From Candidatus Saccharimonadota bacterium (GTDB taxonomy: Bacteria > Patescibacteriota > Saccharimonadia > Saccharimonadales > Saccharimonadaceae): DNA of 64,000 bases. Made by a program: the position numbers and the translations under genes. The notes below the pieces were generated by a model. That model saw nothing but the letters and a program-made list of their open reading frames with translations. It ran no database searches and was not told the origin of the DNA. The DNA lies in contig JAUSMW010000149.1 in assembly GCA_030645815.1 (NCBI GenBank), positions 22,510 to 86,509 on the forward strand. The letters are read 5' to 3'. Of the stretch, positions 1,271 through 50,723 are shown one piece after another; position 1 is the stretch's first letter, and each line of letters opens with the position of its first letter.

Positions 1271-1681
1271 TCATTTGGGCCAGCCTTTGGGGCAGAAGAT
1301 TGGGGCATCTTCTTTCGGATCAGCACAGATGCGGACAGTTTTACCTGTTTTGTACCGCACGATAGTGAAGACATGACCGGACTTGGAGTGCTTTTCCAGA
1401 GTGAAGCCATCCTTGGCGACATCTACGACAGTCACGTTGCTCGGTTTGCTGCACTTGCGAAAGTCAAGCAGCTGCTCTTTGCCGTCGTAGCAGCCGATAA
1501 GTGCTCTTTCGGCTTTCTCAAGTGCACCGGTTGCTCCGTTGTCGAAGGCCTTGTTCTCTCGTTTTGTAAATTCAGAGCTCACCATCATGACCAGGATTGC
1601 GATAATCAGAATGACCACCACCACCTCGGCCAGGTTAAAACCCTGCTCACTCTCTTTTAAATCTTTAAAGCGTTGGAGCAT
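1271..1681 (-). CDS. Type IV pilin-like protein (prepilin-type N-terminus)
   Basis: ...ESEQG|FNLAEVVVVILIIAILV has Gly-1, Phe+1 and Glu+5 followed by a hydrophobic helix. A C-terminal Cys-x10-Cys (CADPKEDAPIFC) sits where a pilin D-loop would. G+C is richer than in the neighbours. Confidence 0.7.
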   Translation of the reverse strand: MLQRFKDLKESEQGFNLAEVVVVILIIAILVMMVSSEFTKRENKAFDNGATGALEKAERALIGCYDGKEQLLDFRKCSKPSNVTVVDVAKDGFTLEKHSKSGHVFTIVRYKTGKTVRICADPKEDAPIFCPKGWPK

Positions 1682-3188: not shown

Positions 3189-3262
3189 TGGCTAGGGTGG
3201 AGGGATTCGAACCCCCGATCACGGGACCAGAACCCGTTGCCTTACCACTTGGCCACACCCTA
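3189..3262 (-). tRNA. tRNA-Gln (anticodon CTG), CCA encoded
   Basis: The reverse complement folds as a cloverleaf: acceptor TAGGGTG/CACCCTA, D arm GCC-AAGTGGTAA-GGC, anticodon stem ACGGG/CCCGT with loop TTCTGGT, T arm GGGGG-TTCGAAT-CCCTC, then G-CCA. Confidence 0.88.
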
Positions 3263-3879: not shown

Positions 3880-3976
3880 ATGCTCCTCAACCCACCACTT
3901 AACAGTTTAATTGTAGCAGACAATGACTTGATATTATACTGGGATAAATGCTAAGCTAAATATACATTAACAATTT

Positions 3977-4073
3977 AATATCAAGAGTGCAGCGAGGGAC
4001 CTAGCCCTATGACCTGCCAGCAACCCTTTTAGTTGGGTGCTACATCTAGTTCCGATTTTCGGAAACAGATATT
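3977..4073 (+). promoter_or_regulatory. SAM-I (S-box) riboswitch aptamer
   Basis: AATATC-AAGAG-TGCAGCGAGGGACCTAGCCCTATGACCTGCCAGCAACC...GGGTGCTACATCTAG-TTCCGATTTTCGGAA-ACA-GATATT. Conserved S-box blocks are AUCAAGAG, GAGGGA, GCCC, UGA, GCAACC and GGUGCUA. P1 is AATATC/GATATT, and the P4 hairpin is present. Confidence 0.85.
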
Positions 4074-4087
4074 TTATGAGTCACTTC

Positions 4088-4123: not shown

Positions 4124-4792
4124 ATGTCATTAGAAACACTATCAAAGCCAGAGGTCGATTTTACAGACTATGCGTTAGAACAAGTCAACACCGAGCTAGA
4201 GCACGCTAGCCCTCTAGAAATAGTACAGTGGGCCTATGAAACATTTGGTGATGATTTGATTGGGGCAACAAACTTTAGAGAGACTTCACCAGTCATGCTA
4301 GCGCTGATTAGTAAAATTAATCATGATATTCAGGTAGTCACTGTGCGCCTAGGGCACGAGTCCGAGAAAACCAAGACGCTCGCCAGATGGTACGAGGCGA
4401 CATTGGGCTTGAACCTAGCAATTCATGGCGATGATATTCAAATCGCCCATGGTGCAAAAGCCGTCAGTGATAGAAAAGCTGAGCTATTTCAACGGGAGGT
4501 AGTTGAGCGTTATAAACCCCAAGCCATTTTGTTCGGTTTAATGCGACAAGGCGAAACAGAAGGCAGAGAAAACATACCAATTATAGAGCGTAGAGATTCT
4601 TTTTTTGCCATAAACCCCGTTGCAAATGTTACGCCGCAAGATGTCGATGAGTTTTTCAGACTTTCTAGCTATCCAAGGAATAGAAACTACCATGATCCAG
4701 CAAAAGGCCCAGATCAAAAATCAGAGTGTGGGTTACATCGACCTAGGCCGAAGCAGAGTATTTCTGACCCCAGCTTGTCATCGCTTCGATAG
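4124..4792 (+). CDS. PAPS/APS reductase (CysH)-like protein, divergent
   Basis: C-terminal ECGLH motif (KSECGLH). It aligns by eye to E. coli CysH blocks, for example ILFGLMRQGETEGRENIPII against WFAGLRREQSGSRANLPVL. The N-terminal nucleotide-binding block is degenerate (ATNFRETSP). Confidence 0.6.
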   Translation: MSLETLSKPEVDFTDYALEQVNTELEHASPLEIVQWAYETFGDDLIGATNFRETSPVMLALISKINHDIQVVTVRLGHESEKTKTLARWYEATLGLNLAIHGDDIQIAHGAKAVSDRKAELFQREVVERYKPQAILFGLMRQGETEGRENIPIIERRDSFFAINPVANVTPQDVDEFFRLSSYPRNRNYHDPAKGPDQKSECGLHRPRPKQSISDPSLSSLR

Positions 4793-48013: not shown

Positions 48014-48541
48014 ATGAGTTTTGCATTAATCGACAAAGTAAACAAAGCGCAGATGAAGCCGTCTGTTGTTGATGCTCGTAGTGGTGACACGGTGAAGGTT
48101 CACCAAAAGATTAAAGAAGGTAACAAAGAGCGTATTCAGATTTTTGAAGGCGTTGTTATCCGTACTGATCGCAAAAACAGCCACACTAGCCGCATAACTG
48201 TACGCAAAATTGCCAGTGGTGTAGGTGTAGAAAAAAGCTTTCTACTACACAGCCCACTAGTAGAAAAAGTTGAAGTTGTTCGACGTTCTAAAGTCCGTCG
48301 TAACTACCTCAGCTACCTACGTGCTCGTAGTGGTAAGAGTGCTCGTCTGAAAGGTACAGACTTTGACCGTTTAGCTGTCAATGACGTACACGACCCTAAA
48401 GCTGAAGCCGAAGCATTGCGACTAAAAGAAGAAACAGCTAAAGCTGCTGCTGAAAAAGAAGCCGCTAAAAAAGCGGAAGATGAAGCATTGGCAGCAAAGC
48501 AAGCTGAAGTCGAAGCCCGACATTCTGAGTCAGCAGAATAA
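48014..48541 (+). CDS. rplS: 50S ribosomal protein L19 with a ~55-aa A/E/K-rich C-terminal extension
   Basis: ...GDTVKVHQKIKEGNKERIQIFEGVVI...ITVRKIASGVGVEKSFLLHSP...VRRNYLSYLR... then ...AEAEALRLKEETAKAAAEKEAAKKAEDEALAAKQAEVEA. Confidence 0.9.
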   Translation: MSFALIDKVNKAQMKPSVVDARSGDTVKVHQKIKEGNKERIQIFEGVVIRTDRKNSHTSRITVRKIASGVGVEKSFLLHSPLVEKVEVVRRSKVRRNYLSYLRARSGKSARLKGTDFDRLAVNDVHDPKAEAEALRLKEETAKAAAEKEAAKKAEDEALAAKQAEVEARHSESAE

Positions 48542-48555
48542 GGTCATTGAATAAT

Positions 48556-48586
48556 AAAAAAAACCACCCGAAATAGGGTGGTTTTT
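48556..48586 (+). terminator. Rho-independent terminator of rplS
   Basis: AAAAAAAACCACCC-GAAATA-GGGTGGTTTTT. Confidence 0.85.
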
Positions 48587-48593
48587 GGTTTGT

Positions 48594-48648
48594 TAAAAAA
48601 AGAGACCTCCCCCGGGCAGCACCAATGAATGGTGGCCCGGGGTGGTCT
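48594..48648 (-). terminator. G+C-rich terminator of the 56-aa micro-ORF
   Basis: AGACCTCCCCCGGGC (48603-48617) pairs with GCCCGGGGTGGTCT (48635-48648), and there is an inner CACCA/TGGTG stem. On the minus strand TCTCTTTTTTT follows. Confidence 0.6.
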
Positions 48649-48736
48649 GTGTGCCGTGAGGTTTCTTGGGCGGCTATTAGCTAGCCGGTATGAGCCAAGT
48701 TCTCACAGCGCGGGGAAACGCGGCGACGGGTCAGGG

Positions 48737-48907
48737 TCAGTCAGGCGCGAAGCCGAGCTGGTCCGAGATGTCGTCGTGTGCGGCCGGCTTGTGGCCAAGG
48801 ATGCCGCCGGTGGCGGCCGAGCTGTCAGTTCCGAATACCTGGTCGGAGTTCGACGAGCCGACAGGTGTGCCGTGTGCCGCGGCGAGAGTGATGATGGTCG
48901 TCTTCAT
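48737..48907 (-). CDS. Unannotated 56-aa micro-ORF (MKTTIITLAAAHGTPVGSSNSDQVFGTDSSAATGGILGHKPAAHDDISDQLGFAPD)
   Basis: The ATG is preceded by AGAAGAAGG. Codons are strongly G/C-ending, and a hand count gives 41/60 G+C at 48721-48780. It has its own promoter-like boxes and terminator, and there is an in-frame TAG upstream. It is below the 60-aa ORF-track cutoff. Confidence 0.45.
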   Translation of the reverse strand: MKTTIITLAAAHGTPVGSSNSDQVFGTDSSAATGGILGHKPAAHDDISDQLGFAPD

Positions 48908-48977
48908 GTAGAGGTAACCTTCTTCTCTTCGATTGCGTTTGGTTGTGCATATCAGACGGGTGTCTGGTATGAGGATA

Positions 48978-49007
48978 ATAATAACATAATACTAAAAAAC
49001 TTGTCAA
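48978..49007 (-). promoter_or_regulatory. Candidate promoter for the 56-aa micro-ORF
   Basis: On the minus strand: TTGACA (49007-49002), N18, TATTAT (48983-48978). A second TTGACA lies 12 nt further upstream (49019-49014). Confidence 0.4.
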
Positions 49008-49058
49008 TACTTTTGTCAAACTATTTCTGGGTATGAAAAAAGACGAGAGGGACCTTGT

Positions 49059-49090
49059 GGCGGACGATGCTGGTGAAAGCATCGTCCGCC
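49059..49090. other. Perfect 13-bp G+C-rich hairpin
   Basis: GGCGGACGATGCT (49059-49071), GGTGAA, AGCATCGTCCGCC (49078-49090). On the minus strand CTTTTTTC follows only about 15 nt later. Confidence 0.6.
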
Positions 49091-49355
49091 GTACTAATCA
49101 CCAAATGGCCGCAACGACGTTAGTTCCGAGATGGAGCAAACTCGAGTTGCATGAAATTCATCGATACTCCGTCATCCATGATGAGAACGGCTCGTGATGA
49201 AAATCATTTTATGGTGAAAGTTTTTGGTTTCTCGTCTTGTTTGTGTTTGTACTGGCGAAACTCTCCGCATCATGCGTGGTCTTTCGCTATCTAAACCTAA
49301 TATCTACTATAGACCTTATGTTTTTACATGTAAACCCTTTTTTTGTAAAAATAAC

Positions 49356-49378
49356 AAAAACTACCTAAAGGTAGTTTT
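49356..49378 (-). terminator. A/T-flanked hairpin (potentially bidirectional terminator)
   Basis: AAAAACTACC-TAAA-GGTAGTTTT. On the minus strand TGTTATTTTT follows. Confidence 0.5.
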
Positions 49379-49419
49379 AAGAAAGTTCAATAAAGTGACA
49401 GACAAGGAGTAAAGCTGCG

Positions 49420-49456
49420 AAAAGGTGGTGGCGTGCTAAGAGAACACACCACCACC
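49420..49456 (-). terminator. Terminator downstream of the Gly-rich micro-ORF
   Basis: On the minus strand GGTGGTGGTGTG, 9-nt loop, CACGCCACCACC (12-bp stem with 1 mismatch), followed by TTTTCGCAGCTTT. Confidence 0.55.
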
Positions 49457-49575
49457 CACGCAATATGCAACCCACCAACACTCACGAGGGCGAAGAGTGA
49501 GTGTAGTGTTTGATGGTTAGCGGCATCGATCATACCATCATCACGATAGCAGGCTGCATGTCGGGAAGCTGGGTT

Positions 49576-49689
49576 TTAACCCCTGCCTGAGCCGCCAACG
49601 CGAAGCGTGAACTCCTGAGCACCGCCTCCACCTCCGCGGGCAGGTCCGCCCTTACCGCCTCCGCAGTTAGTACCACGTATTCCTGTCAT
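49576..49689 (-). CDS. Unannotated 37-aa glycine-rich micro-ORF (MTGIRGTNCGGGKGGPARGGGGGAQEFTLRVGGSGRG)
   Basis: Strong SD AAAGGAG 6 nt upstream of the ATG and an in-frame TAA two codons upstream. The patch is G+C-rich and a terminator lies about 120 nt downstream. It is below the ORF-track cutoff. Confidence 0.45.
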   Translation of the reverse strand: MTGIRGTNCGGGKGGPARGGGGGAQEFTLRVGGSGRG

Positions 49690-49793
49690 CGTTTACTCCT
49701 TTGTCTGTGTAGGTGCGACTCCGTCCGATTAAAAATCCTTCGTAATCCCTGTTATCTTAATATAAATGTTTGCAATAGTCTATAGTAGGAGCC

Positions 49794-50723
49794 ATGATAC
49801 TGGGGATAGACGAAGTCGGTAGGGGTGCGTGGGCAGGACCATTAGTTGTTGGCGCTGTGGTTTTAGGAGGCCAACAAATCGATGGCTTGACTGACAGTAA
49901 AAAACTAACACCAAAACGACGCAGTGTACTGGCGCGGGAAATAAAAGAAAAGGCCACCGCAATAGGTTTGGGTTGGGTGTCAGCCGAGACTATCGACAAG
50001 ATTGGTTTGTCCGAAGCGTTAAAAATGGCAACTCGTTTAGCGGTGAAAGATATCGATACACCTTACGACGAAATAATCATTGATGGAACAATCAAATTAT
50101 TAGACGACCCTAGGGTAACGACCATGAAGCAGGCAGATTTGTTGGTACCTAGTGTGTCAGCTGCTAGTATAATTGCCAAAGTTGCCAGGGACTACTATAT
50201 GAGCGAAGTTGCTAACAAAGATTACCCACAATATGGCTTTAAAAAGCATGTCGGCTACGGCACAGCTATACATAGTGAAACTTTAGCTAAAAATGGACCT
50301 AGTCTACTGCACAGGCTTAGTTTTACACCAGTTAAAAAAACCTTAGGAATGGAATTCAAATCAACTAAAAAATCCGACAAAATCACGTCTACAGCAGGGC
50401 GTATAGCCGAAGATGCAGCTGCTACCCATCTAGAAGGTTTAGGTTTCAGAATTATTGATAAAAATTGGCGAACAAAACTATGTGAAGTCGACGTTGTGGC
50501 CCAAAAAGACAGCATTGTACATCTAATAGAAGTAAAATATCGCAAAATTGCCTCTCACGGTGATGGTCTCAACGCCATCACGCCCAAAAAACTGAAACAA
50601 ATGAAGTTTGCAGCCAGAGTTTGGCAGCACTGGCACAGCCATAATGGGGATATCCAGCTCGATGCTATATCTATGAGTGGCACGCCACCTGTAGTAGATG
50701 ATTTTTTAGAAAACCTACGATAA
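49794..50723 (+). CDS. rnhB: Ribonuclease HII fused to a YraN (UPF0102) endonuclease-like domain
   Basis: N-terminus: ILGIDEVGRGAWAGPLVVGAV...DSKKLTPKRR (RNase HII). C-terminal ~110 aa: GRIAEDAAATHLEGLGFRIIDKNWRTKLCEVDVVAQKDSIVHLIEVKYR...AITPKKLKQM (YraN pattern). SD TAGGAG. Confidence 0.85.
   Translation: MILGIDEVGRGAWAGPLVVGAVVLGGQQIDGLTDSKKLTPKRRSVLAREIKEKATAIGLGWVSAETIDKIGLSEALKMATRLAVKDIDTPYDEIIIDGTIKLLDDPRVTTMKQADLLVPSVSAASIIAKVARDYYMSEVANKDYPQYGFKKHVGYGTAIHSETLAKNGPSLLHRLSFTPVKKTLGMEFKSTKKSDKITSTAGRIAEDAAATHLEGLGFRIIDKNWRTKLCEVDVVAQKDSIVHLIEVKYRKIASHGDGLNAITPKKLKQMKFAARVWQHWHSHNGDIQLDAISMSGTPPVVDDFLENLR

Follow-up and report, generated by a model that had tools for sequence, protein, structure and literature searches.

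A 1.25-kb spacer between rplS and rnhB carries three tandem minus-strand units

Saccharibacteria and other bacteria of the candidate phyla radiation have tiny, densely packed genomes. In a stretch of 64,000 nucleotides (nt) from Candidatus Saccharimonadota bacterium (assembly GCA_030645815.1, contig JAUSMW010000149.1, positions 22,510 to 86,509; this whole stretch is henceforth called the window), the genes rplS and rnhB are separated by a spacer of 1,252 nt, which is the subject of this analysis. The synteny of rplS and rnhB is kept in ~70 of 80 Saccharibacteria loci and the spacer measures ~60 nt in most of them; spacers of 830-1,716 nt were seen only in the clade of the window, in which RnhB is at least 70% identical to that of the window and the spacer holds islands with a G+C content of 0.57-0.71. 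We compared the spacers of 13 related Saccharibacteria loci by alignment and block mapping: L001-L006 were obtained by a genome scan, L083 (76% identical across the spacer) by a metagenome pattern scan, and L095-L101 via RnhB homologs, with L098 a duplicate of L002. The source setting is groundwater: the nearest genome record is the groundwater metagenome-assembled genome L001 (RnhB identity 81%), and the only sequencing run containing the window sequence is a groundwater metagenome.

The comparison shows that the spacer holds a tandem array of three small predicted minus-strand genes, named units B, M and A in minus-strand order (Table 1). A single layout, B-M-A on the minus strand, runs through the comparison set, and the cassette is present in all 13 clade loci; L003 and L097 have no unit B. 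Each unit starts from a conserved sigma-70-type promoter and follows a common plan of a 5' hairpin, a CA-rich and purine-rich stretch, a variable core, a covarying G+C hairpin of 12-15 bp, a pyrimidine-rich 3' element and a terminator with its U-run. The predicted transcripts are structured and 265-400 nt long (folding z-scores against shuffled sequence in Table 1), and the conservation of promoters and terminators far exceeds that of the unit bodies. A consensus scan of the gap found four promoter-like sites where 1.6 are expected and five terminator-like sites where 1.5 are expected. A variant of this layout is seen in L002 (4285-6000; the same in L098), which has four units with two tandem copies of unit A, one for each type of its reading frame (see below), and suggests that the array may grow by tandem duplication.

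A sequence-only reading of the window had described the spacer as a high-G+C cassette with two small genes on the minus strand, of 37 and 56 amino acids (aa). Both open reading frames (ORFs) are present exactly as it gave them, the former with AAAGGAG-N6-ATG and the latter after AGAAGAAGG, and both bear coding signatures, but the reading missed the third minus-strand unit, M, that lies between them. It was also right about the TTGACA-18-TATTAT promoter, about the long G+C hairpin with a T7 run at 48648-48594 and about the unusual composition: G+C is 0.65-0.67 at 48600-48900 and 0.58 at 49500-49700, the window as a whole having 0.436, and these are the only two islands in the 64 kb with at least 60% G+C per 150 nt. 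The terminator that it had assigned to the 37-aa ORF did not hold up, as no T-run follows the hairpin GGTGGTGG...CCACCACC, which is a conserved internal hairpin instead. Plus-strand ORFs of 135 and 73 aa, which it had set aside as antisense shadows, overlie minus-strand promoters and terminators, and we likewise rejected them as genes.

Table 1. Positions of the predicted units, their parts and the flanking genes in the window
Feature	Position	Strand	Description
rplS	48014-48541	+	left flank of the spacer
Bidirectional terminator hairpin after rplS	48559..48586	.	terminator scan; boundary of the units, outside them
Unit A transcript	48594..48971	-	~380 nt; folding z -5.1
sORF A	48737..48907	-	56 aa, MKTTIITLAAAHGTPVGSSNSDQVFGTDSSAATGGILGHKPAAHDDISDQLGFAPD; motif, periodicity, pN<pS
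Unit A promoter	48978..49019	-	tandem TTGACA boxes; TTGACA-18-TATTAT (49007..48978), TG extension, 11/12 consensus positions
Unit M transcript	49036..49299	-	~265 nt; no conserved ORF; folding z -5.9
Unit M P1	49238-49230 with 49048-49036	-	AAGACGAGA pairs with TCTCGTC + U-run
Unit M G+C hairpin	49059-49090	-	within the unit M transcript
Unit M promoter	49306..49334	-	TTTACA-17-TATAGT; 10/12 consensus positions
Unit B transcript	49347..49747	-	~400 nt; folding z -4.2; same layout in 11 loci
Unit B intrinsic terminator	49347..49378	-	AAAACTACCTTTAGGTAGTTTT + T-run; terminator scan, 49378-49357
Unit B P1, 3' strand	49398..49413	-	TTTACTCCTTGTCTGT; anti-SD-like CUCCUUGU, then T-rich stretch
Unit B internal hairpin 2	49424..49457	-	GGGTGGTGGTG.../...CACCACCACC; conserved; no T-run follows
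sORF B	49576..49689	-	37 aa, MTGIRGTNCGGGKGGPARGGGGGAQEFTLRVGGSGRG; SD AAAGGAG, ATG
Unit B P1, 5' strand	49692..49708	-	ACAGACAAAGGAGTAAA; includes SD AAAGGAG (49702-49696)
Unit B promoter	49754..49782	-	-35 TAGACT (49782-49777), 17-nt spacer, -10 TAAGAT (49759-49754)
rnhB-yraN fusion	49794-50723	+	right flank of the spacer
sORF, small open reading frame; SD, Shine-Dalgarno sequence; pN and pS, nonsynonymous and synonymous differences; P1, long-range helix between 5' and 3' parts of a unit.

Unit M is the best conserved unit and has no reading frame

Unit M is the best conserved of the three. Its promoter is kept in 13 loci as GTTTACA-N17-TATAGT or TATACT, its body measures ~260-350 nt across loci and ends in a hairpin, a pyrimidine strand and a U-run, and its profile matches every clade member and none of ~70 other Saccharibacteria loci. 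Relative to L083, a 4-nt indel breaks the sole ORF of the window copy. The helix P1 is formed by a 5' purine strand, AAGACGAGAAA, and a 3' strand, TTTCTCGTCTT, that directly precedes the U-run; we found three haplotypes of it (GACGAG/CTCGTC, GACAAG/CTTGTC and GGCAAG/CTTGCC). In strands extracted by a fixed sequence pattern, 94% of P1 was paired, two positions showed AU<->GC compensation, and none of 500 shuffles reached its covariation score. In unit M of L004, L005 and L101, the 3' strand of the big hairpin (CCTGCC) has an alternative partner in a 5' GAGGCAGG stretch; this pairing would replace the hairpin and may act as a structural switch.

Unit B places its ribosome-binding site in a probable long-range helix

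The promoter of unit B overlaps the divergent rnhB promoter back to back. It was not flagged by the consensus scan; read by eye from the alignment, TAGACT-17-TAnnAT is present in every locus that has unit B. The transcript runs through a 5' hairpin, the P1 strand with the SD, the sORF, internal hairpins, the 3' strand of P1 and the terminator, with a body of ~300-650 nt across loci. The SD strand ACAAGGAG pairs with its partner ~300 nt downstream, and in a MAFFT alignment of seven loci this helix was 88% paired, versus 44-51% when the partner was slid. The 3-5 nt beside the SD belong to the helix and covary between loci (TAAA/TTTA, AAC/GTT, AATGC/GCATT, AGGC/GCCT and GAAG/CTTC). Hairpin 2 has compensatory double changes in 8 of its 12 predicted pairs (11 loci), and the terminator stem is near-invariant, with 8 of 9 pairs constant and 97% of cells paired (seven loci).

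The predicted product of sORF B is a Gly/Arg-rich basic peptide of 26-76 aa across loci (76 aa in L083, 66 aa in L002, 38 aa in L101, and 26 and 28 aa with a TTG start in L004 and L005), and its homologs share the start M-x-G-I-R-G-[ST]-N and a GGPARGGG core. The ratio pN/pS is 0.25-0.6, and the window copy is 117 nt (39 codons) shorter than that of L083, in frame. The proportion of G+C at third codon positions (GC3) is ordinary (0.47); the G+C of this ORF sits in codon positions 1 and 2, in its Gly, Arg and Ala codons. Of 11 relatives with the unit B scaffold, five lack the intact frame: L001 and L100 do not have it, in L006 it is deleted, in L099 a stop and a frameshift cut it short, and in L095 an Arg-rich ORF of 38 aa takes its place. 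All five keep the 5' hairpin, hairpins 1 and 2, P1 and the terminator. Judged by these comparisons, sORF B appears to be a real gene where present, but an optional one.

At the upstream edge of unit B, the Logan contigs of the sole run with the window are interrupted where the unit B promoter meets the start of rnhB (49767-49835), and word depth drops there from ~9 to 0.6; the drop could reflect strain variation or an assembly artefact. The Logan contigs of this DNA run are identical, with zero variants.

Unit A carries a frame with a conserved start and a hypervariable tail

The promoter of unit A (TTGACAAAAGTRTTGACAAG) is kept in nine loci. Its predicted RNA, with a body of ~300-400 nt across loci, begins with a 5' hairpin (48967-48952), followed by a CA-rich leader, the SD at 48927-48919 and the sORF, and ends with a structured 3' untranslated region (UTR; 48736-48650) and the terminator. 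Compensatory changes in the 3' UTR, read from the alignment, are CTTGG/CCAAG in the window versus CTCGG/CCGAG in L083, and TTCGT/ACGAA in L001 versus TTTGT/ACAAA in L099.

In nine copies of unit A the ORF lies directly behind a good SD (AAGGAG or AAGGTGAT), and SD and start codon are conserved in both sORFs. The nine sORF A homologs (35-56 aa) share the start M-K-x(3-6)-[LPI]-AAARG-[ST]-[TP], with H for R in the window, and fall into two types, A2 with AAARGTP (the window, L083, L095 and L099) and A1 with AAARGST (L001, L003, L097, L100 and the first copy in L002); the second L002 copy has a degenerate motif, yet its tail ends like that of L095. Compared with the other copies, L100 encodes four of the five AAARG residues by synonymous codons, and the hairpin that overlaps the motif elsewhere is displaced there by three codons; the constraint therefore appears to act on the peptide. 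In keeping with this, pN is well below pS over the first 16 codons of distant pairs (for example 0.17 versus 0.81 for L001-L100). Between the window and L083, which have their start and stop codons in common, there is an in-frame indel of 9 nt.

The tails (codon 18 to the stop) are rich in Gly, Ser, Ala, Thr and Asp and hypervariable, unalignable even between the close loci L003 and L097; where alignments were made they were saturated, with pN/pS ~1. Pooled, the nine tails have a G+C content of 0.57/0.55/0.88 at codon positions 1/2/3 of the ATG frame (chi-square p = 1e-18), and the 90 nt past the stop codon are flat (0.64/0.63/0.62, p = 0.89). No such periodicity was found in unit M bodies, in the 3' cores of unit B or in unit A of the L004 subclade. 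AlphaFold2 gave no secondary structure for the 56-aa peptide (pLDDT, its per-residue confidence score, 58), and the peptide is probably disordered. Taken together, the 56-aa ORF appears from its sequence to be a real reading frame. The frame held in the nine copies; L004-L006 and L101 have the unit A scaffold without a conserved frame, owing to a frame-shifting indel of 1 nt.

The GC3 of sORF A and the evolution of the locus

As the sequence-only reading had noted, sORF A uses mostly G/C-ending codons: its GC3 in the window is 0.81, whereas the 66 genes of the window have 0.39 +/- 0.07 with a maximum of 0.60 (rplS 0.31). Across copies it is 0.81-0.92, more than five standard deviations (sd) above the genome mean, and is held despite rapid sequence turnover. 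How a coding frame stays near a GC3 of 0.9 through the turnover of its sequence, when the genome is at 0.39, is a sharp evolutionary puzzle, for which three explanations each fail. Recent transfer of an islet was rejected, as presence is not patchy (13 of 13 clade loci) and no donor was found in the protein libraries or the phage, plasmid and viral DNA searched. Translational selection for preferred codons fails too: both sORFs use non-preferred codons, with an index modelled on the codon adaptation index (CAI-like) of 0.58 versus 0.75 +/- 0.03 for window genes. Specific mRNA folding was rejected because the minimum free energy of the sORF A coding region equals that of shuffled versions, with no better folding than mononucleotide, synonymous-codon or codon-order shuffles (z +1.1 to -1.9). 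GC-biased gene conversion, rare-codon selection and host-like codon usage are candidate explanations.

The distribution of types A1 and A2 is incongruent with the RnhB tree: L001 and L095 have near-identical units B and M but differ in type (A1 and A2, respectively), and L002 carries both. The tails are mosaics of modules, with the ending IGGLHREC.SS in L095 and the second L002 copy and TGGI[LA]G...PD in the window and L099. This incongruence and the mosaic tails suggest an old tandem duplication followed by differential loss and recombination.

Outside the clade, a distant Saccharibacteria locus whose RnhB is 55% identical (L022; CAWBLS010000001.1, 4960-6000) has independently gained an insertion of 950 nt between rplS and rnhB, with a locus G+C of 0.50 and a minus-strand 127-aa ORF of GC3 0.85 whose only Pfam match is a weak one to Metal_resist (E = 0.0026). 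This position may repeatedly receive G+C-rich DNA.

Database searches find no known family

The units match no known RNA or protein family and are unannotated. Rfam gave nothing at gathering threshold in the gap, and at E <= 10 only terminator-like chance hits far below gathering scores; ARAGORN found no transfer-messenger RNA (tmRNA) in the gap. As identities for the units we rejected tmRNA, RNase P, the signal recognition particle (SRP) RNA, 6S, T-box, retron noncoding RNA, omega/reRNA and TIGR arrays (no model hit and no associated protein genes), as well as HEARO/OMEGA and riboswitches (below Rfam gathering thresholds). Seven peptides searched against Pfam and NCBIfam at E <= 10 gave no match. 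A word-indexed search with the 56-aa peptide returned only the peptide itself, and an exhaustive phmmer search of 1.84 billion representatives returned the query and one low-complexity hit. A profile of ten sORF A peptides found just three sORF A peptides among 5.8 billion predicted proteins, so gene callers miss these genes almost everywhere. Phage and plasmid collections held no blastn match, viral contigs scanned with both promoter patterns gave none, and overall neither the two protein libraries nor phage, plasmid and viral DNA yielded a homolog outside the clade. The genes called within +/-3 kb in six relatives include no tailoring, export or immunity genes; the neighbours are malic enzyme, L19, RNase HII-YraN, DinB, M13/M1 peptidases and NusA.

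Dual-function small RNAs as the preferred explanation

The small genes appear real, but on these comparisons the conserved entities appear to be three sibling-like structured small RNAs. What is kept, even where ORFs are absent, is the predicted RNA scaffold, since unit M has no ORF, the unit B scaffold outlives its ORF and unit A of the sister subclade has no conserved one. Units B and A appear to serve also as mRNAs. We therefore favour, with moderate confidence, the explanation that the units are dual-function small RNAs, in which translation would be gated by structure on a stable scaffold with a function of its own. In unit B the ribosome-binding site would be one strand of P1, with its partner CUCCUUGU ~300 nt downstream; with the SD locked in this helix, translation would be confined to the time of transcription, or would follow opening of P1 or 3' trimming, and the finished RNA would be a closed, stable molecule. 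The RNA part would act as a riboregulator or a protein-binding scaffold.

If this is true, the spacer holds a conserved, unannotated cluster of three small-RNA genes, occupying 1.25 kb where most relatives have ~60 nt. No small RNA has been validated in Saccharibacteria (bioRxiv 10.1101/2022.03.25.485537), and the units would count with the phylum's earliest candidates for riboregulators and micro-proteins.

Several points weigh against this explanation. That the units are transcribed and translated is something we infer, since the promoters and terminators are consensus matches only, and no RNA-seq runs containing clade loci were found for the three loci searched. The covariation is drawn from 7-13 related sequences; the P1 strands of unit M were selected by pattern, as stated above, and the formal covariation of P1 in unit B is modest because its core never varies. 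The kinship of the units is architectural only, with nhmmer profile cross-hits at E = 0.75-36. The tails of sORF A, with pN/pS ~1, may not function as peptide. Finally, the explanation does not extend to the extreme GC3 of sORF A, whose coding region folds no better than shuffles, so that RNA structure does not account for the bias.

The strongest rival, which we consider rather unlikely, holds that these are plain small-protein genes whose peptides are the sole products (secreted or displayed towards a host, RiPP-like with a leader and a variable core, RiPP standing for ribosomally synthesized and post-translationally modified peptide, or regulatory), the hairpins serving to stabilise the mRNAs. 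It accounts for the coding signatures in both sORFs, for the mosaic tail modules and for the conserved N-terminus with a hypervariable tail of sORF A, as in precursor or polymorphic peptides. It does not account for unit M, ORF-less yet best conserved, for the unit B scaffolds without an ORF (L001, L100) or with a disrupted one (L006, L099), or for unit A of L004-L006 and L101 without a conserved frame, and there is no signal peptide, tailoring or export gene nearby, or family hit. The more specific proposal of the sequence-only reading, a bacteriocin- or microcin-like peptide or a RiPP-type precursor, is not supported by these results: we found no signal peptide, no double-Gly, NHLP, lanthipeptide or other known leader or precursor family (Pfam and NCBIfam) and no tailoring or export genes within +/-3 kb in the six relatives, and close relatives dispense with the Gly-rich ORF.

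It is unlikely that the sORFs are of the leader type, in which an R-G-[ST]-P/N motif would arrest the ribosome and so decide the RNA fold (P1), the tail being irrelevant and rare G/C-ending codons slowing decoding. Arrest needs no more than the eight residues HAPIRGSP, and several arrest peptides have R-x-x-P motifs in common (PMC12526060). Such a role would fit AAARGTP of the A2 copies in L083, L095 and L099, the sORF B start M-x-G-I-R-G-[ST]-N, tails at pN/pS ~1 that keep their codon bias, the non-preferred codons of both sORFs (CAI-like index as above) and the placing of the unit B SD in a P1 strand. However, the window has H for the critical R (HGTP), the five A1 copies and all sORF B copies lack Pro, the motif sits at codons 5-15 and would give a very short nascent chain, no downstream gene could come under its control (each sORF is closed off by a terminator, and the next unit starts from a promoter of its own), and the apparent likeness spans 4-5 residues only.

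Slightly less likely again is that the units are purely noncoding RNAs, the ORFs being by-products of stop-poor G+C-rich sequence. At 65-70% G+C, chance alone would give open frames of 35-55 codons, the ORFs range from 28 to 76 codons, gene callers rarely call them (the three peptides among 5.8 billion proteins) and sORF B is dispensable. Against this stand the 3-nt periodicity, confined to sORF A and in the SD-ATG frame, the AAARG motif held through four synonymous changes in L100, the synonymous excess and in-frame indels of sORF B, and the conserved SD and start codon.

Capture of foreign DNA from a high-G+C donor, for example an actinobacterial host, which would now be decaying or would be imported again and again at a hot spot, seems to us very unlikely. 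The GC3 of 0.81-0.92, more than five sd above the genome mean, the actinobacteria-like codon choice and the independent L022 insertion at the same spot with its 127-aa ORF of GC3 0.85 all speak for it. The remnant of captured host DNA that had been proposed is nevertheless at odds with a cassette that is syntenic in 13 of 13 clade loci with its A+T-rich promoters kept and for which no donor was found in two protein libraries or in phage and plasmid DNA; moreover, the tails have diverged past alignment without GC3 decaying towards 0.39, and the Gly-rich ORF owes its G+C to the amino acids it encodes and not to codon choice.

Still more doubtful is the idea that sORF A is a fast-diversifying peptide gene whose codons are tuned to a high-G+C translation system (pooled tail GC3 0.88, actinobacteria-like codon choice), the epibiont making a stable, structured mRNA or a family of peptides directed at its high-G+C host cell; the N-terminus and the RNA scaffold would then serve delivery or processing, and the hypervariable tail would face the host. 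A milder version within the same idea would have A1/A2 cassette recombination diversify the locus and GC-biased gene conversion drive GC3. A type I toxin-antitoxin-like module, a locked stable toxin mRNA activated by processing (cf. hok/sok, aapA1/IsoA1), is extremely improbable: unit B does offer a ~400-nt structured RNA with a small ORF and a long-distance 5'-3' helix hiding the SD, but the peptides, which are polar and either Gly-rich or acidic, lack a hydrophobic helix (AlphaFold2 for the 56-aa peptide), a consensus scan found no plus-strand promoter-like site facing either ORF, and relatives lose the ORF but keep the RNA.

Other features of the window

The flanking RplS is 175 aa long, with an Ala/Glu/Lys-rich C-terminal extension of ~47 aa (48398-48541, +); ~128 aa are conserved in other Saccharibacteria, and the full 175 aa align in the nearest relatives only. 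On the other flank, rnhB encodes RNase HII with a fused UPF0102/YraN domain (PF01351 + PF02021), and this fusion occurs in nearly all of the 120 homologs listed, from 5,747 found. The only RNAs found in the whole window at Rfam level are a tRNA-Gln(CTG) at 3189-3262 (-) and a SAM-I riboswitch at 3975-4075 (+; 59 bits, gathering score 44.4) upstream of the ORF 4124-4792. The highest GC3 of the ordinary window genes (0.60) belongs to a 136-aa ORF at 1271-1681 (-), whose N-terminus (..QGFNLAEVVVVILIIAILV..), judged by its sequence, resembles a type IV pilin.

Comparison with known systems

Like RiPP and class II bacteriocin precursors, the sORFs encode small Gly/Ser/Cys-containing peptides with a conserved N-terminal and a hypervariable C-terminal part; unlike them, they have no recognisable leader type, no family match and no modification, immunity or export genes nearby. 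The R-G-[ST]-P of A2 copies of sORF A and the I-R-G-[ST] of sORF B recall the arrest motif HAPIRGSP of MsSecM (PMC12526060). Compared with the RAPP-like class (...GIRAGP of EcSecM, HAPIRGSP of MsSecM and RAPP of ApdA/ApdP), most copies lack Pro and the window lacks Arg (RGTP occurs in three of nine sORF A copies, the window has HGTP, and A1 and sORF B are without Pro), the motif lies within the first 15 codons and no regulated gene follows.

In the hok and aapA1 mRNAs, a fold-back between the 5' and 3' ends closes the full-length RNA to translation. The 5' ribosome-binding region of unit B likewise pairs with a 3' element; unlike in those systems, the peptides here are not membrane toxins, the consensus scan gave no sign of an antisense partner and the ORF is dispensable. 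The Listeria LhrC1-5, Vibrio Qrr1-5 and streptococcal csRNAs are tandem multicopy small RNAs with their own promoters and terminators and CU-rich (CUCCUU) anti-SD elements. The present units share with these families the head-to-tail arrangement of sibling genes in one spacer and the anti-SD CU-rich element, but their length is 3-4 times greater, the CU-rich element pairs internally, two of the units are predicted to be translated and their sibling status is one of architecture.

With SgrS/SgrT, RNAIII/delta-hemolysin and SR1/SR1P the units are predicted to have in common that each stands alone with its own promoter and intrinsic terminator, and that a structured RNA of a few hundred nt contains a short translated ORF, the RNA part being more widely conserved than the ORF. 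They have no sequence or structure homology to these RNAs and no Rfam hit, and they differ from them in that three tandem units are built here on one plan, one of them with an sORF of extreme GC3 and a hypervariable tail.

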